The position numbers and the translations under genes are program-made. Positions 26,789 through 64,000 of a stretch of 64,000 bases of DNA are shown in pieces. The notes under the pieces were generated by a model. It saw nothing but the letters and a program-made list of their open reading frames with translations. It made no database searches and was not told where the DNA came from. This DNA comes from a virus (taxonomy: Duplodnaviria > Caudoviricetes). The DNA is taken from positions 96,425 through 160,424 of IMG/VR virus record IMGVR_UViG_3300048502_000015; one strand, 5' to 3'. The first letter of the stretch is position 1; the number at the start of each line of letters is the position of its first letter.

Positions 26789-29395
26789 CTACCTTGTAAA
26801 CAGCGCCGAATCGATCACTGAGTTGTCAACTGGCTGGTTTTCCTGGCTATCGACTCCAGCCGTAATATGGTCAAATCCACGAGATGCTGCTGTAGACTTA
26901 CCAAATAACGACGGTAGACGGGAAACTCCTCCTGCGCTAGCAGTACGAGATGCCTGTTGTCTTAGGCTTGCGGTTTTAACCTTGGCCAAAGTATTTGTTT
27001 GGGCTTCTAGAGCCTCTGGGCTTTCGCCTTCCAATTCTGCAATACGATCATACTTCTGATCCTTAGGGATAAGTCCCATTTCAACTTCGGTATCAGCAAG
27101 CTTAATTGCATTGATGAAGTGTGCAGTAACTCCGTCACTCTTGGTAACTTCCTTGGTGACCGGATCTTGCTGCTTGTAAATCTTGTTTCCATCGGTTCCC
27201 GACCATGTGGTTGTCGGACCAGAATTGTTTGATGGGCTATTGACGGCCTGAAGAACGTCTACACGATCTCCTGCCTTTCCGATTGGATCAGATGGCTGAG
27301 TACCCTGGTTGGCGCTTCCTGGCTTAATGTCCTGAAGATCTCCAACGCCGTCCTCATAAGCAACCTTGGACTTAACACCCTCGTTTGATGCAGGGAATGG
27401 CTCTGAGGTTACTGGGCTAGTAACTCCCTTTTGAGTTCCATCAGAATCTCCGAAAGTAGAGGTAGGTCCGCTATCTTCCTGATTCTTGGTTGTATCAAAT
27501 CCTGCGTTATCGGTCTTGGTAGAAGGAATTTCTTCCGTCTTGTCTGCCTCAACGTCTGAGACTCCAGTTGTTCCGATTCCGGTTACATCGATCTGTGCAT
27601 CGGCCTTTGAAGCCGCTGCGTTATCTGCTTGGTCTACTCCACCGACGCCTATGACATCAACTCGCGTAGTTGGCGAAGCGTCGTCTGGTGACGGTCCCTG
27701 AGCGTTTCGTTGACTCATATTTTCTCCTTGTGCCTTGGCAATTAAGTGTCGGGCGGTAAGCATTGCTGCTGTGACCGGAGTGGATTGATCACTCGTCACA
27801 GTCTCTTTAGATGGTTCGTTTGAAACAGGCTTGGACACAACCTGTACAGGAATTTCGCGCTGATTAATTCTTCCCGCTACCTTTTGATGCACATATGGTG
27901 TCCAATTCATTTCACCTTTTACATTAGCGGTAGGCTGTCCTTTTGTAGCCTGCTCGTTCTGGATCATGCTTCCCGGCTTCTTTGGTTGACTATCAGGATC
28001 GGCCTGTTCTCCCGGAGGCGGACCATTTTCATCACTAGGAATGGTTACCTCATCTCCGGCTTCCATTTCCTCATCAATTTTCTTTGCCTTGTCTAGATCC
28101 GGGTTGTCAAATCCCTTAGGAGGCTTAACATATCCACAAACATCGCAGGTTTCTCCCTGAACATCTGAGCCACAAATCGGGCAGATACTTTCTTGTCGCA
28201 AAGTATCTACTTCTTGAGGAGCGGTTGTCTCCATAGATTGAGGAAGTGGGTTTTCAGCTTGCTTTCTAGCAGCCGTTTTAGTCTTCATTTCGTCTTCAAA
28301 AGTTCCTTGATGTACGGGACCTAATAATCCTAGCTGTATAGATTTATCTAGACGAGGAATAACTTCGTGTTCATCAATGTTATTTGGAATTGTCGCTCCG
28401 TCATCTCCACGATTAGGGACTGTAAGAAAACCCTGTCCTTGACAGGTTGGGCATGATGGTCCAAGTGGATTTTCATGACCGTTACATGTAGGGCAAGCTA
28501 TAGAATTCGAAATTTCGTTATTAGAAATATCCCTTTCTGGAATTTGATAATCGTATTCACCATGAGGAAAATGAACGTTTTCGTCCCCTTCCTTCTGAAT
28601 AGAAGAAATGATTTCCTTAGTCAAAGCCGTTTCATCGGCAGGCTCGAATACTCCTGATAGCTCAAAGAACTGGCATCCGAAACAATTTTCGTAGCTCTTC
28701 TTTGATGTACGATGGCCGTCTGCCGTCTTAAGGTCATGAGTAGCCCCCTTAGACTGGACATGGAAACAATATTCCTCTGGCGAAGAAGCGATATTTCCAC
28801 AATGAGAACATTTGGATCGTTCTACATTTGCTCCCATTGAGAATCCGTCGATTTCTCCATCCTTAACCGCCTTGGCAAACTTAGGAAATGACTTGGCATC
28901 GATTTCTAGAAGAAGCTCGATATGAGTCGGCGGAAGATGTTCGGGGTCAACATCAGATGATGAATAGTACGGATCAAGGGAGGCCGTTTTGGAATCAACT
29001 GGCTCAACGATAAGCTTGGCGTCAACAATGACTCCACGAGCACGCTTAGGATCAGAGTTATGATGGTCTACAAAGATCGGCTTGCCGATAAATGTAGCGA
29101 AACCATACTTCTTGTCTCCGTCCTTAGCCTCAACTGTAAATCCGGTTGAAGACTGCTTCTGGTGTCGTTCGAAGATCTCCTTGGAACCGGCAAGTTCAAT
29201 CGATGGCCATCCGTCATGGTTCTTGTTAACCCTAGAGCTAATGGCTCTTACGCGGGCATAGAGATACTTCTGCCCCGTTCGATAGTTCTTGTATTCCCCG
29301 ACCTTATCGAGCGAAGCCGTCTTAAGTCGGGTAGAACTTCCCTTTATTTCAAGGACACTAGATGATTCGATTGATCCGTGCTTTGTTAATGCCAT
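26789..29395 (-). CDS. Prohead (capsid maturation) protease with scaffold region
   Basis: RAISSRVNKNHDG, TFIGKPIFVDH.N, GFSMG, CSHCG..C.H, FFELS.V..PAD..A; long low-complexity C-terminus. Confidence 0.8.
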   Translation of the reverse strand: MALTKHGSIESSSVLEIKGSSTRLKTASLDKVGEYKNYRTGQKYLYARVRAISSRVNKNHDGWPSIELAGSKEIFERHQKQSSTGFTVEAKDGDKKYGFATFIGKPIFVDHHNSDPKRARGVIVDAKLIVEPVDSKTASLDPYYSSSDVDPEHLPPTHIELLLEIDAKSFPKFAKAVKDGEIDGFSMGANVERSKCSHCGNIASSPEEYCFHVQSKGATHDLKTADGHRTSKKSYENCFGCQFFELSGVFEPADETALTKEIISSIQKEGDENVHFPHGEYDYQIPERDISNNEISNSIACPTCNGHENPLGPSCPTCQGQGFLTVPNRGDDGATIPNNIDEHEVIPRLDKSIQLGLLGPVHQGTFEDEMKTKTAARKQAENPLPQSMETTAPQEVDTLRQESICPICGSDVQGETCDVCGYVKPPKGFDNPDLDKAKKIDEEMEAGDEVTIPSDENGPPPGEQADPDSQPKKPGSMIQNEQATKGQPTANVKGEMNWTPYVHQKVAGRINQREIPVQVVSKPVSNEPSKETVTSDQSTPVTAAMLTARHLIAKAQGENMSQRNAQGPSPDDASPTTRVDVIGVGGVDQADNAAASKADAQIDVTGIGTTGVSDVEADKTEEIPSTKTDNAGFDTTKNQEDSGPTSTFGDSDGTQKGVTSPVTSEPFPASNEGVKSKVAYEDGVGDLQDIKPGSANQGTQPSDPIGKAGDRVDVLQAVNSPSNNSGPTTTWSGTDGNKIYKQQDPVTKEVTKSDGVTAHFINAIKLADTEVEMGLIPKDQKYDRIAELEGESPEALEAQTNTLAKVKTASLRQQASRTASAGGVSRLPSLFGKSTAASRGFDHITAGVDSQENQPVDNSVIDSALFTR

Positions 29396-30772: not shown

Positions 30773-33463
30773 TTATAAACCGAAGACTAAATGTGCTTCG
30801 GGGGCGTTTTCGCCATTAGCTTTTCCGGTACTATCCCACTTGGTTTCGTAGTGGGTGTGGCTCAAGTCCAAAAGGTCTGAGTTACGAGCCAATCCTTGTT
30901 CGTCAATTAAAGCTCTCTGTTCTGCTGGAGAATGCTTTCTTCCAGACGTTCTGAGAAATTCTTCTGCGTTTTGCTTATTCTGTCTCAAGCGTTCGCTGAT
31001 TTCTGCAAGACGAGGATCTTTGGCTGCGATATCAGAAATGTTTCTGGAAGAAGTTCCCGAAGCTCTCATTTGAGAGGCCCGATCCATCCCGGCCCAGAAA
31101 TCATCCTGACCGTTACTTTCGTTTAGCCAACTTAGGTCAATACTTGACTGGTGCCCGTAATCTTCGATTGGGGTTTCCCAAACTTTCTCGCATCTATAGC
31201 AAGTGTGCATTTCTCGTGTTTCGGAGGCATATCGGTGTTCGATATCATGGCTTGAACATTTTGGACAAACATCAGAATCAAACTCGTATTGGCCTACAGA
31301 AGATATTGCCGTCTGACTCGGATAGCTATTTTCTACCTCATCGGTTGTCTGACTTGCTGGACCAACTTGAGACTGGCCCGGAGTTGTTGGAGGCGGCTGT
31401 TGATCTTGTTGTTCGTTCTGAGTCGGAATAAACGTAATTGAATCCATCTTAGCCCGCTGTTGAGTAAGCTTGATGTCGGGGGAGTTATCGCCCTGTTCAT
31501 TACTAAACTGGCCAACAAGCTTTAATCCGACTTCATTTGGATGGATGAATACGACCTTAACGATATCCGGAATCTCATAGGCCGGATTATGCATCTCGTA
31601 CTCTTTGCCCGCTTGAAGAGCTTCGCCGTTGTTGTCCTGCCAAGTCAAAGAAGAATCTTGTTCCTGGGTAATGTCTCGGTGTCCGTGTTCTGCTGCCGGT
31701 TGGGTAGAAGGATTGATAGCCTGAAGATCATCCGAAACTCTCGTAGACGAAACGGTATGCTTCTTGATATTGTCGTCTGTCCAAGTGTGGCCGCACGCGG
31801 AGCAATAACATGATCCTTCGTCGTCGTCTAGAAGTCCCGTTGTTCCTGAATGGCAATTTGGGCAGCGCCTACTAATACTGTCTGCTGCCGTTACTGACCC
31901 CATTTGAGGCGGCATTCCTCCTCCACCTTGAGAAGGATCTGCTCCTGGAGGCGGTCCACCGCCCATTCCTGGAGGACCCATAGGAGGCTGTGGAGGCGGC
32001 GGTATTTGACTAGGATCTACTTGAGGAGCTAGATTAGGGTTGCCCTGAATTTCGGCCATTTCCTTGGCGTAATCCTGTGGTTGAAGAGGAACATCTGGGA
32101 GTTCGCTAATTCGACCCTGCTGAATAAGAAGTTGTTGTACTGCCGCAATTTGTTCGTTTGTTACCGGACCCTGATGGTTAGCTGCTGTATATCCCATGCC
32201 CGGAGCAAATCCACCGCCACCGTTTTGTACTCCTCCGGTAGGATCGGTCTTAGCCCCACAAGTTGGACAACTTCCATCGGCGGTTGTTGCCGATCCACAA
32301 TTATTACACTGTCCCATTTGATTTCCCATCTGCTGCGGCCCAAACATATTTCCCGGTTGTTGGACGATAGCTGTCTTTGCATGAACTCCTAAAGATTTAT
32401 GTCCTTGGAGCCACTTTTCTAAAGCGATTTGACTGTTTAGTGAATCGAAGTTATCAAGATAATTGGGGTTCTCGTCGTGAAGCGTTTTATGAAGTCCCAT
32501 GATCAAAGGTTCATGTGAACCCGATTCAGGAGAATGGTAGTAATGAAGAAGAAGAGGTTGAAGAAGTTCTGCTCGTTGTAGTGCTGGGCTATCTGGAGCA
32601 AAGCCACCGTTCTGTCGGACCTGATCTTCTCCAGATGCGCCAGAATCCTCAAGATTTGGATTGTCCGGTCGATTTGTGTTATCGCCGTCATCAAATTCGT
32701 GCTGGTCAGTACGAGTAGGATCGCCCTCTCTTAGTCCTACTGAATCAATAGATCCCGGAGATTCATAATCTGCCGTAACTGCGCTAATTGTTGGAACGCT
32801 AGCTGGTTGTGATGGAGGGGCAGATTGCTGTGAACCTCCACCGCCTCCTCCAATTCCTAACTCTTTTCCGGCCATTTCTCCTATGTCTCGACCAATGCCT
32901 CCTTCAATGCCTCCCCCAACGCTTCCCCCACTACTTCCTCCACCAATTCCCAAAACGCTATGCATAATTCCGCCAATACTGTCTCCAAGACTACTAGCTC
33001 CTAAGGCATCGGCTCCTAATTCGGCGGCTTCGGGAGCTAAAACTATTGATTGATGAATCTGTGCTTCCTTAAGAACCTGCGCCGAATGAGCAATAAACGA
33101 ATCGTCGCTAAACAATGCGGGGTACGGCTCCATATTTGAATGACGTTCCATAGACTTTCCTTCTACTAAATTACTTTGCAGGTTAGCCACTTTTGAATGC
33201 ATGAAGTTATCTCTTCTTCCCATAGGGCGTTCTCCATCGCTCCCCATAATCGTTCCTTCAGTAAGTGGTGAGCCTCCGGCATCTTTGCCAGAAGGCATAT
33301 CCACCATATCCCTTAAGTCTCCGTCACTTTGAGTCGGTGACGGCTGATCTCTATATAATCTCGTGCCTCCACATTCTGAACACGCAACGGGTCCAGAGAT
33401 GTCGTTAGGACTTAGAAGAAAATGTGTGTCGCAGTCTGCGCATTGGACCGGATATCCAGACAC
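30773..33463 (-). CDS. Large modular head-associated protein with four zinc ribbons
   Basis: Four CxxC...CxxC pairs separated by Gly/Pro/Gln-rich linkers. Confidence 0.7.
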   Translation of the reverse strand: MSGYPVQCADCDTHFLLSPNDISGPVACSECGGTRLYRDQPSPTQSDGDLRDMVDMPSGKDAGGSPLTEGTIMGSDGERPMGRRDNFMHSKVANLQSNLVEGKSMERHSNMEPYPALFSDDSFIAHSAQVLKEAQIHQSIVLAPEAAELGADALGASSLGDSIGGIMHSVLGIGGGSSGGSVGGGIEGGIGRDIGEMAGKELGIGGGGGGSQQSAPPSQPASVPTISAVTADYESPGSIDSVGLREGDPTRTDQHEFDDGDNTNRPDNPNLEDSGASGEDQVRQNGGFAPDSPALQRAELLQPLLLHYYHSPESGSHEPLIMGLHKTLHDENPNYLDNFDSLNSQIALEKWLQGHKSLGVHAKTAIVQQPGNMFGPQQMGNQMGQCNNCGSATTADGSCPTCGAKTDPTGGVQNGGGGFAPGMGYTAANHQGPVTNEQIAAVQQLLIQQGRISELPDVPLQPQDYAKEMAEIQGNPNLAPQVDPSQIPPPPQPPMGPPGMGGGPPPGADPSQGGGGMPPQMGSVTAADSISRRCPNCHSGTTGLLDDDEGSCYCSACGHTWTDDNIKKHTVSSTRVSDDLQAINPSTQPAAEHGHRDITQEQDSSLTWQDNNGEALQAGKEYEMHNPAYEIPDIVKVVFIHPNEVGLKLVGQFSNEQGDNSPDIKLTQQRAKMDSITFIPTQNEQQDQQPPPTTPGQSQVGPASQTTDEVENSYPSQTAISSVGQYEFDSDVCPKCSSHDIEHRYASETREMHTCYRCEKVWETPIEDYGHQSSIDLSWLNESNGQDDFWAGMDRASQMRASGTSSRNISDIAAKDPRLAEISERLRQNKQNAEEFLRTSGRKHSPAEQRALIDEQGLARNSDLLDLSHTHYETKWDSTGKANGENAPEAHLVFGL

Positions 33464-39556: not shown

Positions 39557-39820
39557 ATGACGACTAAGAAAAAGACAAGTACAGGAGAGAAGATTTTTGC
39601 ATTATCTCTTCTTCCATTCGTTGAAACAGGGATTTTCATTCTGTTTTGGAATATTCTCCGGGTTCATAGTGCCGTAGGCCATCATTTGGGTACGGTAAAT
39701 TTCTGGACCGCATTAGGAGTAGACATCGTAGTTGCTGGTATTGTAAGTGCCGTTTTTGCAACTCCATTTTGGGGCGCAAAGTATAACGTTGGCAAGCTAT
39801 ACGATACCCTTGACATTTAG
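39557..39820 (+). CDS. Membrane protein
   Basis: 2 TM. Confidence 0.55.
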   Translation: MTTKKKTSTGEKIFALSLLPFVETGIFILFWNILRVHSAVGHHLGTVNFWTALGVDIVVAGIVSAVFATPFWGAKYNVGKLYDTLDI

Positions 39821-40064
39821 TGCGCACCTACACGATTTAGTGTTCTCGGTTGGGGCGGCGGTCTTATTCGCCGCCCTATTTCCGGCAGTTATTCGGAAGT
39901 CAGTAATTCCAATCTCCACCTGTCTAATCACGGGTGGAGTTTTACTGATTTTCACGATTAACTATTTCACAATGAAATATTGGTATGCTACAGTAGTAGA
40001 AATGAGTAATGTAATCGCATGGGGTTATCTGCTAAGAGTCTCGTGGAAATTTAAGGGAGCGTAA
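39747..40064 (+). CDS. Membrane protein (3 TM; start uncertain)
   Basis: Hydrophobic; coupled to next gene. Confidence 0.5.
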   Translation: MPFLQLHFGAQSITLASYTIPLTFSAHLHDLVFSVGAAVLFAALFPAVIRKSVIPISTCLITGGVLLIFTINYFTMKYWYATVVEMSNVIAWGYLLRVSWKFKGA

Positions 40065-51122: not shown

Positions 51123-54026
51123 CTACTCTTTACCCGCTTGATCTTCGCCTAAAACCGACCATACTTGGGGGGTGGACATTTGTAAGGTTCTGGTTGCGTG
51201 TTGCATGTTGGTTTCGCCCGGATTTCCGTATGTGTGAAGTCCTGTATCTGGATTGGTGTACCAGGGCCTTCTAAGCGATGCTGCCGTTTTTGAGGTAAAT
51301 TGATATGTCGGATCGGTTGCCCCATAAGGAATCTGATTCTTAGGAGTAAACGGAGCCACGTTTTGGTCCCAATCGGCTGCTACGGAATCTCGATAGGGTT
51401 GAGTGTTTCTCCACCAATCTGGAGCGTTGTTATGCCAGTCTGCTTTAAAGGCTTCTGCATGGCCTCCTCCAACTGGCTGAACTTTAGCTGCCCAATCAAT
51501 TGAATCATGTGGAGTAGGGTTGAGGACCTTCAATCCAGAATGATCTTGGTGGGAACCCGCCCCGGTTCTTTTGGCATCCCACATTAGCCATTGAAATTGT
51601 CCTAGAGGAATATGTCCATATCCGGCTGCATCTCGTCCTGTTGCAAGCTCCCGTTCAAACTTTCCATAGTCACGGGTGTTCATATCCTTCTCATAATTGT
51701 GGCCGAGAACGTCCATCATATGAGTGTCAATCGTGGCCAACTGAGATGTCATTGGTTGAAGAAGAAGCCACGCAAATGAGCATACCTTTGGTCCAACCCC
51801 CGAAACCCCAAGCTGCATTACTGCCGCCCGGAAATGATGTCCTGTCCCGTCATGCTCGTGAATGTCTTCTAATGCTGCCTTGAGAATATTGTCTACGTGT
51901 CCGCTAATTTGGCCAATTGCCTTTAGATGAGTTCCCATCCATGCCGGATACTTTTCTGGAACATCTTGAGGCGTTGCCTCCGGAGGAGCAAATAGGGGTT
52001 CTTGAACTGCCGAAGTGAAGTCTAGCTTGGGCTGGAATTCCTTGATGTACAACTGCATACGCTTAGCTAGAGCTTCGTTAGCCCGACGTTCAATCTCGTC
52101 CGCTAGACGTTGTTTATCCTGGGGCTTATCCTTGTCCTCTCTTGCGATTCTTTCTTGTTCCTCGTTCTGCCAATCGAACATGATCTGCTTGGCTTTTTTC
52201 TGTGCTCCTTGCCATCCGATCTTAGGATTCATCTGGAAGATGATCGACTCAAACGGCTTAACAAATGGAGCGTAGACCATGTGAGCAAAACGAGCTTGTT
52301 CTCCGAAGACCTTAACATTGTGATTCTGTCGGGCATTCTCAAGGGTATTCCAATAGACTCCTGGATCAGAAACATCTCCCGGAATTCCAGCAATATCCTG
52401 GTAGTGTCGAACGTTGGCTTTCAAGTCCTTTCTTGGCGAAAGAAGAACCGCCCGGAAAGCATTTACAATGGCCTGCTTCATAAGGGCCAATTCTCCGGGA
52501 TCTTCCTGATTTAGCTGGGACCATTCGGTATCAATCAGCTTTGCATTATCTGCCCCGGCTTGGCTTCCTAATGGGTCGCCATGATCAAGATAAGCGTTTG
52601 GCTGCATCGGTTCAACCCCGGATGACCAGTTGGCATTTGGGTCAGTAAAAGGGCTAGAAAACCTAGCAGATCCCTCTTTGCTAATGTCGTCATCTTCCTT
52701 CTCTTTCTTTCCCCTTACTTCAATCTCTTCGTCCCGATCAAGATCCCACATGGTTTCCTGTTCATTATCCCAAGCTCGTTTATGAGCTTCATGGAAGTCA
52801 TGCATGATCTGGCCGATATCGAGATATGCCTTAGATCCGTTTTTCCAAATGCTAAGGTAGTTGTCGGGCATTGAGAGCGCAGCAAGATTAGTCTGAACGA
52901 ACTCGTCTATCTTCTGAGGATCTAGATTCGCAAACTTGATTTGGACTTCCCGATCCTTAGTCGGGCTGAAAGCATATCCGTGCTTAGGCTGATCTCCCTT
53001 GAGGTTAATGAAGACTCCCTTTTTGTTGTGGGAGATTAACTGGAAAGCAGTACGAGAGATCTCTGATGTACTGGCAGAGAAGATGTGAATCGGTCGATCT
53101 ACTCCGGGAACGTAGTTGGCCAATCCTAATCCATCAAGATGAGGAGGAATCCCGTCAAACTCTGGTTCGTATTGTTCTGGCTTTACTGCCGGGGAAGATA
53201 CGGGAGGGAAACTCTGGGAAGGATGAACGCCAGCATATCCCGGTCCAGGATTCTCCTTTTGTTGAACCGAATCCATGAACTGGGGGAATAAAGCGACCTT
53301 CAGGGGACCGAATCCCTTGTAGTGCGCCGCATATCCGGTTTGCCCAATACACTCGGACCAGAGAGCCTTTTGAGCGTTTTCTGATAGTAAAGGAAAGTGC
53401 GCGGCGCACGCAGCGTTCTCTCCCTGCCAATCAAAATTTCCTCCAGAAACGGCGTGCCCAAGTACATCGTGAACCGCCCTGAATGCTACGTTCGTTGGGG
53501 TATCCCAGATCGGATGATCTGAGTTAGCTCTTGAAACATTCAGCTTTCGACGCTTCTGAATGTCTTCGATCATCTCTTGAGCGTTTCGGTAGGGTTCGGG
53601 ATCATCTGTCTCGGTAATGTTGAGATGTTGCTTTAGCTGGTTATATCGACGTACCGAATCCTGTCCAAGTTCGTGAAAGGCTGCCGCTGCTTTAGGGTCG
53701 TAAATGTTTGCCTTTGAATAAGCCTCGGCTATTTGGGGAAGCTGGTCTGTCCAATTGTGTGGATTCCACATGCCAAGTTTCCATTGGGCTGCCGTTCGCA
53801 TATTGTACTTGCGAGTAATCGATAGAAGGAGTTTAGCCATTGCTCGTTTTTCTGAATCTCCGAACGACTCGATCTCTTCCCCATGCGGATTCTTAGCCTT
53901 GACCAGATATCCCTTTTTCTTGTCGTACTTGATATGCTTGACTTCCCATCCCAATTGACCAACCTGTTGCACAAGGTCTTCAAGATTAGCTGTAAGTCCC
54001 TGAAGGGATGCAAGAATATCCGGCAT
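51123..54026 (-). CDS. Multi-domain (polyvalent) protein: HD-zincin-like, SAM-lyase-like(?) and HhH-GPD glycosylase domains
   Basis: FRAVHDVLGH..GE; YLSIW..YLDI..EA..NEQETMWDL; GVGPKVCSF..IDTHM..QWLMW; start reassigned to ATG 54026. Confidence 0.75.
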   Translation of the reverse strand: MPDILASLQGLTANLEDLVQQVGQLGWEVKHIKYDKKKGYLVKAKNPHGEEIESFGDSEKRAMAKLLLSITRKYNMRTAAQWKLGMWNPHNWTDQLPQIAEAYSKANIYDPKAAAAFHELGQDSVRRYNQLKQHLNITETDDPEPYRNAQEMIEDIQKRRKLNVSRANSDHPIWDTPTNVAFRAVHDVLGHAVSGGNFDWQGENAACAAHFPLLSENAQKALWSECIGQTGYAAHYKGFGPLKVALFPQFMDSVQQKENPGPGYAGVHPSQSFPPVSSPAVKPEQYEPEFDGIPPHLDGLGLANYVPGVDRPIHIFSASTSEISRTAFQLISHNKKGVFINLKGDQPKHGYAFSPTKDREVQIKFANLDPQKIDEFVQTNLAALSMPDNYLSIWKNGSKAYLDIGQIMHDFHEAHKRAWDNEQETMWDLDRDEEIEVRGKKEKEDDDISKEGSARFSSPFTDPNANWSSGVEPMQPNAYLDHGDPLGSQAGADNAKLIDTEWSQLNQEDPGELALMKQAIVNAFRAVLLSPRKDLKANVRHYQDIAGIPGDVSDPGVYWNTLENARQNHNVKVFGEQARFAHMVYAPFVKPFESIIFQMNPKIGWQGAQKKAKQIMFDWQNEEQERIAREDKDKPQDKQRLADEIERRANEALAKRMQLYIKEFQPKLDFTSAVQEPLFAPPEATPQDVPEKYPAWMGTHLKAIGQISGHVDNILKAALEDIHEHDGTGHHFRAAVMQLGVSGVGPKVCSFAWLLLQPMTSQLATIDTHMMDVLGHNYEKDMNTRDYGKFERELATGRDAAGYGHIPLGQFQWLMWDAKRTGAGSHQDHSGLKVLNPTPHDSIDWAAKVQPVGGGHAEAFKADWHNNAPDWWRNTQPYRDSVAADWDQNVAPFTPKNQIPYGATDPTYQFTSKTAASLRRPWYTNPDTGLHTYGNPGETNMQHATRTLQMSTPQVWSVLGEDQAGKE

Positions 54027-54031
54027 ACTGA

Positions 54032-57000
54032 TTACGCTTCCGTTTTGAAGTTCCATGCCGAAAACGTTGGCTTCTCGGGAACGTTTTGGTACGAGTGCGT
54101 TGTATAATCATAATGAGGCGCAAGTAACCCATTGATATTGTTCATAGCTTCATAATGGGGATGATCCTCAAGGGCTTCGGATTCGAATCTACTCCGCATA
54201 TCATCATAGTGATTCATTGCCTCTTCATCGTCATCGTTTTCTGGATATGATGGCATCCATTCCGTCCCATCATAGTTATCATGTGCCCAATCGAGATGCC
54301 TATCTACTTCAGGTTGCGCAACCTTATCTTGCCAATCCCCAAAGGCCGTAGCAAACTGAGGAATCTCTCCTCTGTGTTTTGCCAAATTATATGCATTTTC
54401 GGCCCAATGCCAATCATGATGTGATTGACGATAACGATTATCATCCACCATGTTGTTCATAACGGCTGGCCAATCCACGTCGGGCTTAGGGGTACTAAGC
54501 CCATATTCATCTATTGCATTCTCAAAATATGACGGATGAATTTCTTGAGGATCTCCAATCTCAAACCGATCCTCATCGGCCCATTTAGGTTTATTCTCGG
54601 GACTGAAAGTATCGAACCATTGCTTCATTCGGTCCTTATACTCGGGAAGCGGTTCTTGATTTCCTTTTCCTTGAATTTGGATTACTTGTCCATTTTCTGG
54701 AACATAGTGATGATTGATAAATTGAGGATCACTTTCTAACGCTTCGTAATGGGGTCTAGCCCAGGGTTCACTCCTATTTTCGTAAATATGATCGGGAGAG
54801 TACAGTTTAGCCATTTCCTTAAATTCATCATAAGGTAGTCCTGCTTCTACCGCATCATTGTTCATATTAGGGTATGTGATGATTTTTGGGGGATGCAATA
54901 TCCCATTTCCTTTAGCTGCTAACTCATCTAATGCTGGCCAATTCCATTCCCTTCTTCGAAGAGGATGAATCTCCATAGTAGTATGCGGCTTGCCTTCCGG
55001 ATCTCTTAGGGAGTAAATCAGAGATCTTCCGTTCTGTACCTGCTGACCATATCCGCCAACGCAGTTATGGACCACGATGTTCTCCACAACATATGAATGG
55101 TCGCCCTCTACTTCTAGGTTGTAAACGGGGCCGGAATAATGTAATTGATCGAGCTTATATATTGTCACGGCTCTGCGATCACCAATTTGCCAGAACCCCG
55201 CCTTGTTATTCCCTCGTCTTGGATAGGGAGTTAACCCACAGGGTTCCTGAACGGCGTATGATACCTTTTTATTTTTGGGATAATTGGTGGAAATAGAAGG
55301 CTGTCCATTCTGACGTAATGAAATTTCAGCCATCTGTAGAGCTAACATTTTAGAGGTTTGATGAAAGGTTTGACTACTTTCGCAATTATCTCCGTCTAGA
55401 ATTCCCCTCTGTAAATGATTAAGCTTCTCTAGGGGTAGGTTCAAAAGTTCAGCGGGAATATGTTTATTTTCACAGCCCCTTCCTAGCCATTCTGAAAACC
55501 ACTCCGCTAATGTCCGAGAAGATATCCTCATGACTCGACCGTTATAATCTAATTTATCCTTTCGTTCTTGTATAGTAAATCCATATGTGAGAAAAAGGTC
55601 TTGAAGTCTCGTCCAATAGGATTTTTCATCCTTATGCAAGGCAAATTGAATTCCATTTTCACTGGCTGATCCCTCGGCAATATATAAACCAATCATCCAT
55701 AAGAATTCTGGTGTTAATTCAAACCCTTGTGGTCCTTGACGAGCCGGTCCAGTTCTTTGCTCCTTTCCTAAATGATGTTTAGGGATAGTAACATAGTCCA
55801 GGTCATATGAATCCTTTAGAGGGTTTGCAGCCAAATATTGCCTTCTATCAAGCTCTCGCGCGGGGGTCCATTCAAATATGTGCTTATCTGCATCCCGTTT
55901 GGGGCAAGATCCATCCCAAACCTTTGGATGCTCTTGATCACAATGAACGGCTAAAACTGGATGATTTCCCGTCATTCTAAGAGGTTCGGTGCCTACGCGA
56001 GTATACGCTTCTATTAAATCCCCTTCATAGTGATTTACAAAGGTTTGTTCGACTGAATGCCATTTTCCATCTGCCGCGATTACTTTATCGCCCACAATAA
56101 CATCTTCGATAGGAATAAATCCCTTTTTAGTTCGGACTAAAGATCCTGCCACAAAACAATGGCCCATGTTATTTCCTTCGGCTTTAAGCTCTTCCGGTTG
56201 CGTTAGCCTTCTCAGGGTCCAATTATCGGGATATCTATGAACTGTTTCTCCGTGAGAGGCCGCTTCTTGTTCTTTGGCATTCTTCATTGCCTCATCCCAA
56301 TTTTGGATATGTTGCATAAACTCTGGGAGAGTCTTCTGCATGATATCCCCCATAGCTCGCTTCTCGGGATGATTAGAGTTATAGAAATCCGCCCAGTGAT
56401 CCAAAGTATTGTAACTTATCGGTCGTTTCCCATATTGCTGATCACTTTGGTCCTGATAACTTAATAACCCAATCGGGTTGTCACGACTGCTCCCCTCGTG
56501 ATTTACATGATTTATTCTTCCCTTTTTCCACTCTCTTGTAAGCCACGGCATTAATCCATCAGATTTCTCACTCCAATAACGACCACCAAGAGTTCGTAAA
56601 AATTCTTTTCCCTCGGGAGTTTGTAAATCTGGACGAGCTTTAGGGTTCATCAAAAAATCATGAAATTTGTCTGCCGTCTTGACCATGCTGGTATGAGTCG
56701 GGACAAATCTCGTATAATCGAAGCCGCACCAACAAGGTTCTCCGGTGTAGTAATTCGGGTGGGTTTTAGCCGCCGATTCAAAGTTCCAACCAGCCCCAAC
56801 TGTCATCCCATAGTCGTTGCTGAATTGGATATCGTGATGTCGGGCTTCTCCTTCTGTATCCGTATTTCCATGGCCGTATTCCTTATCCCAATGAGTCGGA
56901 GCTTTGAATGTCTTAACATCCATGATTGCCTCTCTCGGGACAATCCCCTTGTAATAATGGTTTCCCCATTCCATTCCGTTTTGGTATCCCTCGCCCGTTT

Positions 57001-58708
57001 CCGGATCGTATCCGAACTGATCTGGATCGAGTTTATCCGGGTCAATAGTGATTCGTACAGGCTTGTCCATAAAAGGAATATCGTCGTTCCAAGAGGATTC
57101 TGGGTCTTCCCCATTTTCAGTCAAATACGTGCCCGCTGGAGCGATCTCAGAGGCATCTAACCACTTGTGTATGTTCTTCGAATCGGTCCAATGATATAGG
57201 GGATGAGTAGTGGCTGCCACCTTTGATTGATCAATCCATTGGTCCGCCATATTTGGAAGTCCGTTTGGATTACTTCTTTGCATTCCCCAAGGCATATGGG
57301 CATCGGCAGGGGCCTCATCAATCGCGTGCGGCGGAATGTATCCTCGATGGGCAACTGATCCTCTATCAAGCGAAAAGTGAGTATCCATAGGATTATTTCC
57401 TAGTCCTATTTTTTCAGCCCAGTCCCCCAGTGTTTTTTCTCCGATTGGGATTTCGTCGGCATCAAAATGGTCCTCATCGGGATTCAGATTAGCTGGATCA
57501 AGTTTCCTCAGGTCTACTCTTAACAAATTGGTGCCCTTTTTCCCATAACTTGCGGCATATGAATGATTGGCCAAATAAACATGTCTTGGTCTTGGTGTTG
57601 GCCAACCTGTATATCGACTCCCAATTCCCCAAGTATCATGAGGATGAAGTCCTACATTCAAGATTTCTGGTATTGCGTCAAGGTTGGTCCCATGATAAAG
57701 ATATGGTCCGTTCTTCTCCATATACTCGGCCAGCCAATTGGGATCGGCGGCAGAGAAGATAGCCTTCTTCTCTGGCTCAAAAGAATCGCAAGTGTAATCC
57801 TTGCTGACAGTCTTCAAGCCATATCCCCAGCAGCGGCCTTTGTCAAACATGGTGCAATTCCCACAGTTCTTTGTGGCCGTTCCCTTCTTGTAATGAGGCG
57901 GCTCTGGAGCCTTGTGAGCAAATTTCCATGACCCTACGTGTTCTGGATCGTCTGGAATGCCCGTCGCATGATATCCTACTTGAAATTCTTTAGGGGTTAT
58001 CCCGCCATAAGGGATTTGTAATGTGTCTCTAGGTTCTTTCGAGAGAACATCCGAATTCACTAAAGCCTCAGGACTTACTCCTCCTTGAACTGCAACGGTT
58101 CCAAAACTATTTAATGAATGAGCCACATGTGCAGGATCATTCAGTCCAACTCGGTCTGCCCAGGCCCCTCTTCCTTCATCTTCCTTTGAAAAACCATCGT
58201 CAATATCAACCTCTCTAAGCGGTAATCCCCAACTCTTTTGGTCACTTAAATGAGTAAATGCATCTTCATCGGCATTTATCCTAGTAGGATCAAGTTTCCG
58301 TAAATCGATTCCAATAACGGTATGAAGGAAGAGTTTGTTTGTTGGCCTCCATGCCTTCGCATATACATGATTGGCTCTAGGGTATAGATATCCGCCATAC
58401 TGAGATCCAATAGGCATTCCTAGATCATCTGCCGGATTAGGCTGATCATGCGGGATCAATCCTTCCCGAAGAATCTTATCTCTGGTATCGCTTCCTGAAG
58501 TAGAATGGATAAGGTAAGGTCCATTTGCCTGAATCCACTTGTTTAGCCATTCTGGATCGGCTGCCGATATCTTGCGGCGGTTATGAGGCTTAGGAAGGCC
58601 CCATCTTCTCTTTCCGCGTTCGTGATCCTCGTTTGAAGTAGTAAACTTTTTTGCCGATAAAGAGGCTCTATGTTGCGCTAAACTGGTGAAAAACTTAGAT
58701 GAATTCAT
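54032..58708 (-). CDS. Giant polyvalent protein: 3 ART-like domains, HiPIP-like motif, PcfJ-like domain with intein
   Basis: YLIHST..ILREGL.P, YLYHGT..IL..GL.P, LYHWT; EGNNMGH/CVGGY, IYSLRD..GKPH.T.E, QIQGKGN. Confidence 0.8.
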   Translation of the reverse strand: MNSSKFFTSLAQHRASLSAKKFTTSNEDHERGKRRWGLPKPHNRRKISAADPEWLNKWIQANGPYLIHSTSGSDTRDKILREGLIPHDQPNPADDLGMPIGSQYGGYLYPRANHVYAKAWRPTNKLFLHTVIGIDLRKLDPTRINADEDAFTHLSDQKSWGLPLREVDIDDGFSKEDEGRGAWADRVGLNDPAHVAHSLNSFGTVAVQGGVSPEALVNSDVLSKEPRDTLQIPYGGITPKEFQVGYHATGIPDDPEHVGSWKFAHKAPEPPHYKKGTATKNCGNCTMFDKGRCWGYGLKTVSKDYTCDSFEPEKKAIFSAADPNWLAEYMEKNGPYLYHGTNLDAIPEILNVGLHPHDTWGIGSRYTGWPTPRPRHVYLANHSYAASYGKKGTNLLRVDLRKLDPANLNPDEDHFDADEIPIGEKTLGDWAEKIGLGNNPMDTHFSLDRGSVAHRGYIPPHAIDEAPADAHMPWGMQRSNPNGLPNMADQWIDQSKVAATTHPLYHWTDSKNIHKWLDASEIAPAGTYLTENGEDPESSWNDDIPFMDKPVRITIDPDKLDPDQFGYDPETGEGYQNGMEWGNHYYKGIVPREAIMDVKTFKAPTHWDKEYGHGNTDTEGEARHHDIQFSNDYGMTVGAGWNFESAAKTHPNYYTGEPCWCGFDYTRFVPTHTSMVKTADKFHDFLMNPKARPDLQTPEGKEFLRTLGGRYWSEKSDGLMPWLTREWKKGRINHVNHEGSSRDNPIGLLSYQDQSDQQYGKRPISYNTLDHWADFYNSNHPEKRAMGDIMQKTLPEFMQHIQNWDEAMKNAKEQEAASHGETVHRYPDNWTLRRLTQPEELKAEGNNMGHCFVAGSLVRTKKGFIPIEDVIVGDKVIAADGKWHSVEQTFVNHYEGDLIEAYTRVGTEPLRMTGNHPVLAVHCDQEHPKVWDGSCPKRDADKHIFEWTPARELDRRQYLAANPLKDSYDLDYVTIPKHHLGKEQRTGPARQGPQGFELTPEFLWMIGLYIAEGSASENGIQFALHKDEKSYWTRLQDLFLTYGFTIQERKDKLDYNGRVMRISSRTLAEWFSEWLGRGCENKHIPAELLNLPLEKLNHLQRGILDGDNCESSQTFHQTSKMLALQMAEISLRQNGQPSISTNYPKNKKVSYAVQEPCGLTPYPRRGNNKAGFWQIGDRRAVTIYKLDQLHYSGPVYNLEVEGDHSYVVENIVVHNCVGGYGQQVQNGRSLIYSLRDPEGKPHTTMEIHPLRRREWNWPALDELAAKGNGILHPPKIITYPNMNNDAVEAGLPYDEFKEMAKLYSPDHIYENRSEPWARPHYEALESDPQFINHHYVPENGQVIQIQGKGNQEPLPEYKDRMKQWFDTFSPENKPKWADEDRFEIGDPQEIHPSYFENAIDEYGLSTPKPDVDWPAVMNNMVDDNRYRQSHHDWHWAENAYNLAKHRGEIPQFATAFGDWQDKVAQPEVDRHLDWAHDNYDGTEWMPSYPENDDDEEAMNHYDDMRSRFESEALEDHPHYEAMNNINGLLAPHYDYTTHSYQNVPEKPTFSAWNFKTEA
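55064..56158 (-). mobile_element. Intein (365 aa) with LAGLIDADG homing endonuclease
   Basis: Starts CFVAGSLVRT, block B TGNHPV, IGLYIAEGS and RGILDGD motifs, VYNLEVEGDHSY..ENIVVHN followed by Cys. Confidence 0.93.
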
Positions 58709-58721
58709 TACACCGATTATA

Positions 58722-61700
58722 CTACAGGAATCGCCAGGACCCTATTACTCTATCCGGTAATCCGATTCCAAGTTGCTTAATATCGTTCTCGTTCCAATTT
58801 GGATAGGTTCCGTCGTAAAATTTACCGGATGGACCCTTTGGATATTCCCAAGTATCCTCATATGGTTGATGAAGAACGGGCTGATTGATGCTATGAGGAA
58901 TTATATGTGCATCTGAAAATGGCATTAGTGGATCTTCCTCCAATGACTGAATCTGATCGTCTGGAATTCTCCACATATCAGTTGGGAGTTGCTTTCCCAT
59001 TTGATGATCGAAATAAAGCCATCGAGCACCTTCTGCTTTCTCTTCGTTCGGGACAACATAAACTCCAGCGGCTTGATCCTGAATATCTTCGTTTCCCTTC
59101 CAATGATCATTTACTCCCGGCGAAGATAGCTGCAATCCATGCTGTTGAATTCTGGCCCGTTCTGTAGTCGGGGCTAGATGATACCAGTCGGCTGTCTTGG
59201 CCATAAACTCGTTCCAGCTATTTGTTGAGTTTCCTTCAACCGGAGATTTCAAAAGACCATGAGGGTCTTCAAGATTCTCCCAGAAATCCCCCATGTCTGC
59301 TTTCAATCCCTCTTGTCGCTTCTTGTGCTGCTGGACTAGATTCCAAACATTCTGTCCATGGCCCATTCCCTGATTAGGTGCATTAGGATCTAATGTCGGC
59401 CTGTTCCAAAAACGGTGATGACTTACTATTGCTCGGCTAACATCAATTCTCGGAAGTCTTCCTTGATCATACCATCCGTGCCAAACCCCGTGCATTCTTT
59501 TGTTCTTCCCAAAGGTATTCTTCCACATTGGTCCATTTTGATCATGCGCTAGATCATCAACGTTGAAATCTGGGATTTGGTAATTGGGGGTATCCGCTAT
59601 CGGACCTGCTCCGACAAGTTGTGCTGCTCGCGCCTTCATCCTAGCTTCATTTTCGTTGCGAAGATTTGGTGCTCCCTCTGGATTCCATCCTACCCATCCG
59701 TGATGGAGATTTGGTCCATATCTATCGAATCCGTATTTCTCAACGTAGTTTGTTAATTCAGGAGTGTTTCTAACGATATCGTTATGCGTTGCTGATTCGC
59801 TTCCCATGAAAATGTTCCCGGATAGGTCGTTATAGATAACCGGCCATCTTCCGCTCCAAGCTCCTCCACCACCTGGGACCGGAGTTACCATTGCAGCAGA
59901 ATACTTGTCAAAATCCCAGCCTCCCTGTCGCTGAAGGATATCCATGATCTTATTTCCGTGTCCCATCATCGGAGCATTATCTGGAAGCGTTGGCCGATTC
60001 CAGAATTTATGATGACTAATCATTGCGTTGGTTACAACTGGACCAGGATCTTGTCCGTCCTTAAGTCCGTACCAGCCATACCAAATTCCTTCTGGGGTTT
60101 TCCGATTTTCGTCATATTCCTTTGGATAATAATCTGCTGGAGGAGTATTCTCCGGGAAGCTTGTGTAGCCTGCTTCGGGATTATATCCGACCCAGCCATG
60201 AGAATAGTTTGGGTTATATCGATCCAAAACTGGATTTTCTCCTTCCCAATCAGGATCATATCCCTTTATATGATGGGCAATATCTGAATGGAAATCTCCT
60301 TCGGCTCCCATATGGATCTCGTCATTTTGATGATCGTAAATGACTGGATAACGGCCTCTTAGCCAACCCGAAGCATATCCGCCTTCATCGTTATGCGGAA
60401 TTACCATTGAGGCCGCTGTCTTGGAGAAGTCCCATCCGCCGTCTTCCATTCTCCAAGATTCTGAAGATTGAAAATTCCATTGAGAAGGATATGTCGTTGC
60501 TCCCGGCTCGCTATCCATCCAAGGATCGGGATGGTTCATAGTCTGAGGAACTTCGTCATGAGAAAGCTCTTTGCCCATTACCCATGGCGGATAAGTGACA
60601 TTAGAAAATTCATGTCCCTCTGGCCCCGAAATGATTTTGACATAATGCGATCCTCGATAGTACGGGTCGGCATGATCGTACTCAACTTGATATGGCCCGC
60701 CCCAGCCCATGTTTTCGGAATCGGCGGGAGTCCAAGTCAAACGATCTCCCTTGGAGAAAGAATGCGGCTGATCAGGAATCCGTTCTTGCTTATAAGCGGG
60801 TTGAGGGTAATCGCCCAATCCATCCCAGTCGTCATCCCCGTACTTGGATTTGAATTTCCATGATCCAATTAGATGATCGGGGTAAAGTGGCTTTGGCGCA
60901 AAAAGTTCTTCCGGACTATTTCCTGGTCCCCATAGTTGTTCTTGTGGACTATTCTCTAGGTTTCGATAGCTCTGTTGCTGATTATGCTCCTGGAGCCACT
61001 CATTCCAGCGATCTCTAATTTGAGTAGATCCCTCGTCTGCCGGGTCGTGAAGATCATTAAGAGCATCAGTAATCAGCGGTAAGTGCCCGTTATGGTAGAG
61101 ACTTGCCCCATTAGCTGCCGCTGTATCAAAAACATTCCGATGAATTTCCTCGTCCGGATGCCATTCGTACATGCCCCTTGCCACATCATGAGGATTGAAT
61201 CCCTGATTGTTCTCGTGCCATCTTGTCCCTGAATGCCATTGGTCGCCATGTAAATAGTCCTCGATCCCCGGATGCTCGGGATGATAATGGGCGACATATG
61301 ATTCTGCATCCCTAACCGGCTCTGCATCGTCCAAATAGATGTCATCCTGCGGTCGTCCCATCAAGCGATTCCAAATTGCTCGATCTCCTCCGTTTAGGTT
61401 GGCATTTCCAAGCTGGCTATCCAACTGATCCATGTGGTGTTGTCCATTATATTCTGCCGTTTCATGCGCCCGTCTGAAATCATCTTCGTCCCCGCGTGCT
61501 TGTAGATCTCGGGCAATGGAACGGAAATCCGGAGGAGCGCGGTTGACTTCTGTATCCTCCCCGACCTCTCCATGATTCATGGCTTCGTCCATCATCTGAC
61601 TCCATTGGTTCTCCTCCATCTCCGGATGATGGTATTCGTAGTATTCTTGTGCGTTTTCTGCCCCAGGAACCGTTATTTCCTCATCCGCTTGGCCTTGTAA

Positions 61701-63976
61701 CCCAACCGCGTTATTTCGATGCGGCCGATCCATTCCTCTATGATCCGCCCATTCATTTAGCATGTCCTGATATTCGGGCTTAACGGGATCGTCATTTGGT
61801 CCATAGCATTCCGACAAAGTTCCATCGGCATTGTATGTAAAAGTGACATGCGGCCAGCCCTTTTTATCTCTTAGCGAATAGGCTTCGAGTTGTCCGTTAT
61901 CGGCCATCTCAGTATAAGGATTTCCTCCGATGCAATGGTTCATCGCCTTTCCTTCGGCAGCCAAAGCATCGGAAGGATAAATTGATTCTCCTCTTGGATT
62001 CTCGTTTTCATTAGTATCGGTCAAATCATGGATATGCCAGCCGTTAGGAAACTGATAGATGTTCTTCCCGTAACTCAATCCCTCTTTCATCAACTTCTCT
62101 TTTTCAAGAGCTTTTTGATGTTCTTGAACCTTTTGAAACATCTGGCGAACTCCGAAACCGGAATCAAGGACATTGACTCCTTGCCGAGTCGGATGCTGGC
62201 GAGCGTTAAGCCATTGATTGGCTTCGTCCAGTTTGCTTATTCCTCCCCAATTTTGTCTATGCGGTTCAACCCAAGCGTAGCTCGGTGCCCCATGGTCTGG
62301 ACGAAATTCGTCAAAATAATCACCTTCTCCTTCGCCCAGATACGGGGATTGCATATAGAGCTTGCCATTCGGATGAACTCTGAACTCCCCCTTCTTAAAG
62401 CGATGGGCCATCCAAGGGAACAATCCTTCGTACTGCTCGGGGAGCTTCTTAAGATGCTCTTTGAAGGCAAGTCCCTCTGGAGTATTCAGTTGCTTATCGG
62501 GAGAGTTAAGAACCCAATTGAGTTTGTTCCCGGCAAGATGGAAAGCCCTTCTCCAGGTCTTCTTGAACGGACAAGTACACGGAAGCCCGGTCCAGCTATT
62601 ATGATGCTCGGGAACCGAATAGTTTTTAAGTGCTACTTTATGCATCCCTTGATCCCAAATATTTCCAAAATTTTGAAAGCCATCGTTCCATGAATTAGAT
62701 AGACGGGACCCAATAGATCCGATTACTCGGTCTGGAAGTCCGATTCCCCATTTCTTTCCGTAATCCTCAAGATCATAGTATTCTGGATAAGTTGGCCCGA
62801 CATCTCCTCGTCCGTAATCGTATCTCTCTGGCTGAACGGCAACGCTATGCTCGTAAGGCTGATGCAAACTCAAAGCCTCCGGCGGAATCTCATGCGGGCA
62901 GACCCATTTTTTCCCTCCTAAAAGAGGGTCCCGTTGCAAGGCCGAAATATAGGAAGGATCGATTTTCCAAATATCGCCTTTGACATCCCAGGGAGTCATA
63001 GTGTTGTAAGGGTCGTTGGCCATATAGACTCCGGTAGGCTGCCAGCTAACTGCTCCAGATCCCCAGCCGGAATTGTTCTTCGGGCTAGAAGGCTGCAATC
63101 CGAAAGCTTGAATCCGATGGCGGTCTTCAGTTGGAGCAGCATGATAGAAATTGGTTCCATGAAGTCCGGGATTATACCCAACCCAATTGTCCCAAACAGA
63201 TTCCTTATGGGACCCTAAAAGGGGACCCCATTTAGGTCCTACATTATGCGTCCCCTGCCCCAAGTTCTTACTAGAATTTCGATTGCCTCTATTATGCCCA
63301 AATAGGGGAGCGCTCATATCAAAGGACGGACAGGATGTCAAGTCCCATGTATCCATTGGCCTATCATACTGGCTGGATGATGTCAAGCCACGCTTGTCCC
63401 AGTCATCTGCTATAGTATGTGTATGCGTGTTGTCCTTGCTACATTGCTTACTCTGCTTGCCGAGTATATCGGACTCGCTCTTGTCCCAAGACATGTTGCC
63501 CATCATGACTTGATCGGAGTGTTGATCATAGTCATTGCCCTTTGGATGATTCTGATTATCAGTTTGATTCAAACTTTGATGATTCAAACCAGAACCAAAT
63601 AAATCCCAATCAAGGGACAATTTGTTTCGGCGCTTCATGAATTGATCTACCCTCGTCTTTCCCGCAGGCGACTCTCGTAGCTCATCTATTTCGTTGCCGA
63701 TCTGGGAAGAATGCGTGTACTCCTTTGTCGGAGACATTCCTACAGGATTGTTCTCTGGGATATGCCAAGTCTCTCCTAATTGATTATCCGCATTCATTCC
63801 ATGAATCGGGCAAGTTAGTTTCTCCCCGATAATGCAAGAGCAGCCATGAAGTTCTGGATGGCCTTTCGGATCATCAAACTCTCTGCTGTCGTCATGATCG
63901 GCCAAGAATTGTTCTAGCTCCTTGACAATTGGTTGTCCTTGTGCATGAGGAGGGTTCTTACTGGGGTGGTCTGAGA
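58722..63976 (-). CDS. Giant polyvalent protein (5' truncated): 2 ART-like domains, PcfJ-like domain, duplicated unknown domain
   Basis: Frame stays open upstream of TTG 63905 up to the adapter; FYHAAP..RIQ..GLQ and WYHLAP..RIQ..GLQ; AEGKAMNHCIGG, YSLRD..G.PHVT. Confidence 0.8.
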
Positions 63977-64000
63977 GTACTCTGCGTTGATACCACTGCT
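63977..64000 (-). other. Library adapter (SMART/IS-PCR-type oligo), not biological
   Basis: Reverse complement reads AGCAGTGGTATCAACGCAGAGTAC. Confidence 0.95.

Follow-up and report, generated by a model that had tools for sequence, protein, structure and literature searches.

A [KR]-T-A motif shared by giant modular proteins and the prohead protease-scaffold of an uncultured myovirus may mark the giants as protease substrates

We examined the 64 kb at the end of one contig of 160,424 bp (IMG/VR record IMGVR_UViG_3300048502_000015, positions 96,425 to 160,424; hereafter the window, to whose numbering all positions refer unless marked as genome positions). The window carries three giant open reading frames (ORFs) and the prohead protease gene of an uncultured tailed phage. 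What we observe is that the giants are chains of separable modules, that a short motif, [KR]-T-A, is enriched in them and placed at module boundaries, that the same motif is shared with the phage's head protease-scaffold, and that the modelled fold of this protease is that of T4 gp21. We propose, at roughly even confidence, that [KR]-T-A is the recognition motif of the clade's head protease and that the giants are its substrates, and so cargo of the prohead. The motif is read as a protease signal because its highest density is found in the very protein that has to cut itself, and because it recurs in unrelated head-module neighbours and sits in loops and linkers; the giants are read as substrates because the motif lies at their module starts, a placement that is moderate in strength and reproducible. 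The module linkers appear to be polar and to carry a two-part signature, with an isolated W-x-F at or near the end of one module and [KR]-T-A-[GSAD] at the start of the next. A more specific proposal, which is tentative and clearly less probable, is that the W-x-F tail and the [KR]-T-A head form a two-part code by which strings of counter-defence enzymes would be loaded as substrates of the protease-scaffold, the cut site serving as the packaging signal and the chain being resolved into ejectable enzymes. A first-pass annotation of the window had read the giants as polyproteins processed by the head protease; of that reading we retain the separable module chains, the recurrent junction signature, and the occurrence of [KR]-T-A both in the head protease-scaffold and in head-module proteins of the clade.

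The junction motifs had initially been described as W-x-F and/or a loose [KR]-x-[ASG], and every string quoted in that description is found at its place. The loose pattern is at chance in the giants (108 matches vs 105 ± 9 in shuffles) and has the same rate there as in the rest of the proteome. Several of the listed instances are also not independent: GGWDF occurs twice in a tandem repeat, and ISAADP and FSAADP stand at two paralogous domain starts. The part of the description that stands above chance is the narrower pattern [KR]TA[GSAD], together with W-x-F. The strict motif occurs 5 times in the giants, where 0.4–0.7 are expected, an 8-fold excess relative to the remaining proteome (Fisher p = 0.003), and 20 times proteome-wide vs 6.4 expected. 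These 20 sites are divided among the 868-aa protease-scaffold (6; Poisson p = 3e-9), a 505-aa protein (4), a 332-aa protein (1), the giants (5) and all other proteins (4, which equals background). The reported recurrence of the motif in the prohead protease is thus confirmed, and its reported recurrence in an 896-aa protein is not, since two loose matches and zero strict ones are what chance provides. W-x-F occurs 10 times in the giants vs 5.0 in shuffles, 4-fold over the remaining proteome (p = 0.001), and the extended form [GSAQ]W[KNDR]F, a pattern picked post hoc, occurs 8 times vs 0.3.

The densest carrier of the strict motif is the 868-aa fusion of protease and scaffold (26789..29395, minus strand), which matches the PHROG head maturation protease and is syntenic with the cement and major capsid genes. 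Its six [KR]TA[GSAD] sites lie on the minus strand at 29312-29323, 28979-28990, 28718-28729, 28268-28279, 26966-26977 and 26936-26947. A structure model of residues 1-330, calculated from a 40-sequence alignment (mean predicted local distance difference test score, pLDDT, of 78), shows a confident fold for the N-terminal 250 residues (pLDDT 78). The model matches T4 gp21 (5jbl_A; Z 11.9, root-mean-square deviation 2.9, 146 residues aligned) and, more distantly, the proteases of varicella-zoster virus (Z 6.2) and human cytomegalovirus (Z 4.8), with unrelated rows at or below 4.8; 5jbl is the only specific Foldseek match (probability 0.97-0.99). Searches of the protease domain against Pfam, NCBIfam and PDB sequences gave no matches. 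His111 and Ser186, the latter within G-F-S-M-G, are invariant in the 40 sequences and conserved in ScottMcG, Finch and Myrna, and form a putative catalytic pair. By its modelled structure, the 868-aa protein is a prohead protease with a T4 gp21/assemblin-type fold. Across 120 protease-scaffolds, Glu-type motifs occur at nearly their expected rates (ratios of 1.09 for [LI].E and 1.20 for [SAG].E) vs 8.5 for [KR]TA. W-x-F is depleted in the protease-scaffold family (9 vs 24 expected); therefore, it is not part of the protease's self-cleavage sites.

Two further features of the protease-scaffolds were noted in passing. Within the protease domain (28406-29395, minus strand), Cys196, Cys199, Cys210 and His212 are invariant, and a second four-Cys block lies at residues 301-318, which suggests two zinc sites in or just after the domain. 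To our knowledge, such paired zinc sites are not a feature of T4 gp21. In addition, six homologues (P0053, P0110, P0119, P0127, P0132 and P0138) carry Hint/intein Pfam domains, so that inteins also invade the prohead protease gene in this clade.

The motif concentrates in comparable proteins of related phages. Rhodococcus phage Finch has 17 of its 24 [KR]TA[GSAD] sites in gp12, gp13, gp16 and gp17, and ScottMcG has 12 of its 20 in gp85, gp93 and gp94; the motif-rich proteins of both phages are all large and are located around the portal and the protease. In an unbiased ranking of all tripeptides, KTA comes first in the protease-scaffolds of four related phages, and in the other large head-module proteins of Finch, ScottMcG, Myrna and this phage RTA is first and KTA third. 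Among 119 metagenomic homologues of the protease-scaffold, drawn from 633, the strict motif occurs 456 times vs 24 expected, with at least one site per protein. It clusters at conserved places, namely around residue 25, in two protease-domain loops, in the middle of the scaffold and twice near the C-terminus. The giants and the protease-scaffold could be compared side by side in two IMG/VR records that carry the protease-scaffold together with a giant containing a PcfJ module. In one of them (G002, 144 kb), the only enriched proteins are the protease-scaffold (5 sites), a 325-aa protein (2 sites) and the giant homologue P0047 (3 sites), and 14 other proteins longer than 700 aa hold 0 or 1 site.

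In the present phage, the motif-bearing 505-aa protein (genome 34883-36400, minus strand) and 332-aa protein (genome 36409-37407, minus strand) are encoded between the terminase and the portal and have no family match. By position they are counterparts of Finch gp12 and gp13, and they are likely further protease substrates or head-internal proteins.

We now describe the giants themselves. Together, the three ORFs span 5383 codons on one strand, are 13 nt apart or overlapping, and have no convincing internal terminator between them; they form a same-strand block directly upstream of the tail-fibre genes. Giant 3 (58722..64000, minus strand) is represented in the window by its C-terminal 1727 aa. 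Its delimitation rests on the ORF list, the translation and the closed ORF, and the coordinates first given for it were incomplete: the full ORF encodes 2848 aa, of which the N-terminal 1121 residues lie outside the window at genome 23-4004, across the circle junction. It contains PcfJ-like modules, Tpt1/ART-like modules and a tandem pair of domains headed by GGWDF. In giant 2 (54032..58708, minus strand; 1558 aa), three Tpt1/ART-like modules are accompanied by a small Cys knuckle and by a PcfJ-like module into which an intein is inserted. The intein (Hint plus LAGLIDADG; residues 851-1215, 55064..56158, minus strand) interrupts the MGH-C motif of that module, begins with Cys, ends with His-Asn, is followed by a +1 Cys and matches Pfam Hint_2, Intein_splicing and LAGLIDADG_3 and NCBIfam intein_Cterm (TIGR01443); its insertion site is conserved in an intein-free paralogue and in 36 GHC motifs of the homologues. 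Giant 1 (51123..54056, minus strand; 977 aa) contains a widespread phage domain at residues 92-267 and a block at 463-930 that is common to P0029, P0047 and P0014.

Pfam identifies PcfJ-like domains in giants 2 and 3, three modules in all, and five aligned Tpt1/ART-like modules lie inside the window, plus further unnamed blocks. The repeated modules carry the signature Y-H-x-[TAP] ... G-L ... V-Y, as seen in self-comparison and in comparison with homologues. The Tpt1/ART label is weak for the phage's own copies: the PARP match has an E-value of 0.018, PF01885 is reached only by the homologue P0009, at the cut-off, and a profile of the five copies found no meaningful match among PDB sequences. 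The annotated ATG of giant 1 sits, in another frame, within the W-N-F codons of giant 2 (54026-54061); comparison with P0029, P0047 and P0014 suggests that the real start is Met11 at 54026, five bases past the giant 2 stop. By eye, giant 1 residues ~700-800 contain a helix-hairpin-helix, G-[VI]-G-P-K ... D-T-H, that resembles an HhH-GPD glycosylase, with no match in Pfam.

A search of 5.8 billion proteins returned 47 giant homologues of 865-2634 aa, in which the module orders are shuffled. Their Pfam domains include Tpt1, Acb1-like/LigT 2H phosphoesterases, cREC, a CCA-adding enzyme with HD, and Fic/DOC. Judged by these domain assignments, their content is a typical counter-defence repertoire, and the giants are polyvalent proteins, which is to say strings of unrelated enzyme modules on one polypeptide. 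By analogy with the polyvalent class, delivery of the giants into the host along with the DNA is predicted. A megablast of the 12.9-kb giant region against phage records gave zero matches, tblastn of giant 2 against the same records gave only intein matches and one PcfJ-like match, and a related-locus search with giant 2 alone found nothing, while an alignment query did recover loci.

Both motifs are enriched throughout this family. The 47 homologues contain 42 strict [KR]TA[GSAD] sites vs 5.9 expected and 113 W-x-F vs 52. In 50 giants there are 16 copies of the composite W-x-F-x(0-8)-[KR]-[TVI]-A vs 0.4 in shuffles, while Finch, ScottMcG and the two IMG/VR records have none anywhere in their proteomes. 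The giants of this set also end and begin at the motifs: 7 of the 50 have W-x-F within their last 8 residues (rotation null 0.5, maximum 4), and 3 of the 50 have [KR]TA within their first 12. In a second, largely independent set of 129 giant-family representatives, W-x-F occurs 197 times vs 108, the strict motif 63 times vs 10, and there are 35 composites and six more W-x-F C-termini. ORFs that end at W-x-F, or that begin with [KR]TA near residues 3-12, resemble module junctions which gene fission has frozen in place, and so would fit modules that function as separate units. W-x-F is specific to the giants and would be a second signal, confined to the cargo and separate from [KR]-T-A, with docking to the capsid or scaffold, or a role after entry, as candidate functions.

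Some of these same features also suit another explanation, that the motifs are docking signals for the capsid interior, the scaffold or the portal, with the giants being loaded uncut like the N4 virion RNA polymerase or P1 DarB. Copies of the motif are concentrated at the C-terminal end of the scaffold, the part with which scaffolds bind the coat protein; the W-x-F at natural C-termini resembles a cargo-loading tail; ORFs keep [KR]TA two to six residues from their start, where cutting would gain little; and N4 virion RNA polymerase is packaged without cutting (PMC5512222). However, three conserved sites lie in protease-domain loops, which are no coat-binding part, and W-x-F is underrepresented in the scaffolds. 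The protease-scaffold, moreover, has to be taken apart at some site, and it shows enrichment of no other motif. With these points set against it, we regard docking alone as unlikely.

Recognition of [KR]-T-A by the protease would place cut sites between modules, and the motif's position relative to homology blocks can be compared with chance. In the three giants, each of the 8 [KR]TA sites is at most 8 aa away from the end of a homology block, where chance would place 2.7 of them (p = 1e-4). Family-wide, 61% of sites lie at block starts vs 20% by chance, or 48% vs 18% when the position at the head of the PcfJ-N module is removed. Block starts fall within 20 aa after W-x-F in 41% of cases vs 24%; W-x-F near block stops shows no enrichment (29% vs 25%). 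The early claim that recognizable domains begin right after the motifs is borne out by these numbers. The linker placement of the motifs rests on these block ends and on flank composition: around W-x-F, hydrophobic residues are scarce and small and acidic ones abundant, the composition expected of a short linear motif in a linker.

The individual junctions, all on the minus strand, illustrate this arrangement. In giant 3, the composite GGWDF-S-KTAA-S (60408..60440) heads the first copy of the tandem pair, with a block starting at full-length residue 2278, and the paralogous GGWDF-D-KYSAA (59892..59924), whose second half is degenerate, heads the second copy. SWNEF-MA-KTAD (59187..59219) lies just ahead of the last Tpt1/ART-like module, where blocks start at full-length residues 2686-2695; GSWKF-KSKYG (60837..60866) lies in a stretch without a covering homologue; and GSWRFL (58725..58742) forms the C-terminal tail, a position at which W-x-F is enriched family-wide. 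In giant 2, GSWKF-AHKAP (57905..57934) lies behind the first Tpt1/ART-like module, GWNF-ESAAK (56765..56791) lies between the third such module and the PcfJ block, V-KTAD-K (56666..56683) starts the conserved PcfJ-N module, and SAWNF-KTEA (54035..54061) is the C-terminal tail. More than 20 homology blocks start at residues 673-679 of giant 2, the conserved module beginning KTAD-KFHDFLMNPK, and K-x-A-D stands ahead of the PcfJ-N module in 25 of 27 independent representatives. In giant 1, M-RTAA-Q (53784..53801) is just ahead of the conserved 92-267 domain, and FTS-KTAA-S (51276..51299) is at the end of the large conserved block, with a parallel YAFS-KTAS in P0011.

A conserved junction peptide could arise as a by-product of conserved DNA at which modules are exchanged by recombination, and the modules are indeed heavily shuffled among the homologues. 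The codons of both motifs nevertheless differ synonymously (for KTA, AAA/AAG for the first residue, ACG/ACC/ACT/ACA for the second and GCT/GCC/GCA/GCG for the third), and [KR]TA is frequent in non-shuffled scaffolds too. Because the codons vary at synonymous sites, selection acts on the peptide, and on this ground we reject a recombination junction at the DNA level, which we consider highly improbable.

If the giants are cut, the enzyme that cuts them might be a protease other than that of the head, either a zincin-like domain within the giants or an enzyme of the host that acts once they have entered. Iyer et al. predict self-processing of polyvalent proteins by zincin-like peptidases (PMC5512222), and giant 1 residues 92-267 weakly resemble peptidase models, with template modelling (TM) scores of 0.39 to a Peptidase_M78 cluster and 0.35 to DUF2201_N. 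Yet both scores are below 0.5, the domain has H-D-x-x-G-H instead of HExxH and no Pfam match, and no clear zincin domain is found in the giants. The 92-267 domain is common as a stand-alone phage protein, and a homologue of it is located in the structural region of Cluster C phages. Finch, which has no detectable copy of it, shows the strongest motif clustering, and the head protease-scaffold is the densest carrier of all. We therefore think another protease improbable, and return to the head protease as the candidate enzyme.

Several results weigh against the proposal that the giants are substrates of the head protease, and some of them would suit a purely structural reading, in which the signatures are domain caps or linker residues inherited with shuffled modules and the giants are uncut multi-domain enzymes, packaged or not. 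In this phage's giants the enrichment is modest, with KTA ranking about tenth among tripeptides (p = 1.5e-3 before correction). About 17 of the 42 homologue sites correspond to a single homologous position, the KTAD-KLHDFLMNPK that heads the PcfJ-N module, and stand-alone proteins retain KTAD there after leaders as short as 4 residues, so that it could be part of the domain. ISAADP/FSAADP and GGWDF belong to paralogous repeats. Some giant homologues are rich in W-x-F and poor in KTA, such as P0030 with 13 W-x-F and one KTA. The major capsid protein contains no such site. A strict test on the three giants alone, which requires at least 3 block ends within 10 aa, does not reach significance either for KTA, with 2 qualifying sites among 5 (p = 0.12), or for W-x-F, with 3 among 10 (p = 0.21), and a single-sequence AlphaFold prediction of the junction-rich C-terminal 598 aa of giant 3 gave no usable model (pLDDT 33). 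Known head proteases mostly trim N-terminal propeptides and do not cut chains into many enzymes (PMC10052503), and we found no virion proteomic or cleavage data in the literature on Cluster C phages. On the other side, the same tetrapeptide heads at least four different module types and recurs in contexts that are unrelated and in part disordered (the scaffold; Finch gp12, gp13 and gp16; ScottMcG gp85 and gp93), and W-x-F has the polar, hydrophobic-poor flanks typical of short linear motifs. We judge a structural origin of both signatures to be unlikely.

With cleavage by the head protease as the preferred reading, the mechanism would proceed in three steps. The assembling prohead would take in the giants; the head protease would cut them at or beside [KR]-T-A into single enzymes, while dismantling its own scaffold; and the resulting enzymes for counter-defence and RNA repair would leave the capsid along with the DNA in ready-made form. 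In this scheme we infer that the giants are packaged, that they are cut, where the scissile bond lies and that the pieces are ejected, with precedents in PMC10052503, PMC5512222 and PMC12810830.

The genomic setting is as follows. The same amplification-adapter sequence is present at both contig ends in inverted orientation (window 63977-64000; genome 1-22), and inside the adapters the first and last 691 bp are identical (genome 23-713 = 159711-160401). This 691-bp overlap closes the genome into a circle of 159,688 bp, the adapter having been left on the record. By sequence comparison, this uncultured phage is a myovirus with a genome of about 160 kb, and its head genes are similar to those of the Cluster C mycobacteriophages (Ceeclamvirinae): its major capsid protein is 58% identical to those of Myrna and ScottMcG, its portal protein shows 38-40% identity, and the gene order of protease-scaffold, cement (PF23968) and major capsid protein (phrog_2522) is that of Cluster C. 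The 896-aa protein (30773-33463, minus strand), encoded beside the head genes, carries a TFIIB-type zinc ribbon (residues 533-568) and otherwise matches nothing; it was considered as the portal and ruled out, as the portal gene sits at genome 32373-34838. A 105-aa ORF without a family match (39747-40064, plus strand) ends in SWKFKGA, the same W-K-F tail form as in the giants, and is the only non-giant ORF of the genome with a C-terminal W-x-F.

The initial comparison with T4 gp21 and phiKZ gp175 holds in principle and differs in the motif. In T4, phiKZ, 201phi2-1 and SPN3US, internal or ejected proteins share a short motif with the scaffold, and it is there that the head protease cuts them (PMC10052503). 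The protease described here has the same fold as T4 gp21 and, in T4, head-internal proteins that are later ejected (IPI-III and Alt) carry the motif of the scaffold core and are cut inside the prohead, as is predicted here for the giants. T4, however, cuts after Glu ([LI]-x-E), a motif that is unenriched in the present family, and takes off one short N-terminal targeting peptide, whereas here the sites are internal, multiple and between enzyme modules; the protease is also fused to the scaffold, unlike that of T4. In phiKZ (gp175) and SPN3US (gp245), processing takes place at a motif of three residues in many of the head and ejection proteins, and the motif is repeated in propeptides (PMC10052503, PMC5694885). 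Their motif is A-X-E, their substrates lose N-terminal propeptides of 20-254 aa with no enzyme chain released, and no partner motif like W-x-F is described.

Other phages carry giant proteins in their capsids. The polyvalent proteins of phages and conjugative elements, as defined by Iyer et al. (2017), are giants that combine unrelated enzymatic domains; their genes lie next to late genes, and entry into the host together with the DNA is predicted for them (PMC5512222). The same paper proposes processing by built-in zincin-like peptidases, which are common in the class but not obligatory, and a search of its text finds no mention of PcfJ or inteins and one of 'prohead protease'. In P1, DarB, an anti-defence enzyme of ~2,000 aa, is packaged and ejected, and its partner DarA is cut by the prohead protease Pro (PMC12810830); DarB is loaded via DarA/Hdf, is not described as cut into modules and has no known shared short motif. 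The N4 virion RNA polymerase (~3500 aa; in part after PMC5512222) is carried in the capsid and injected, and it acts as a single enzyme. By sequence analysis, the system described here would differ from these in its non-Glu motif despite a gp21 fold, in the protease-scaffold fusion, in its multiple internal sites and in a W-x-F motif confined to the cargo.

The two-part code, if true, would be a capsid-internal polyprotein strategy that has not been described for tailed phages. If the proposal that the giants are substrates of the head protease holds, the role of head proteases would widen from the trimming of propeptides to the freeing of several enzymes per chain, carried out by a gp21-fold protease whose specificity is not centred on Glu. 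It would also provide a sequence rule that predicts capsid-borne proteins and their cut sites in a large, mostly uncultured clade, which comprises the 633 protease-scaffold homologues and includes the Cluster C mycobacteriophages. The motif and the W-x-F tail would then be a testable handle for loading foreign proteins into capsids, and the question of how polyvalent proteins are processed becomes a concrete experiment in cultivable relatives.

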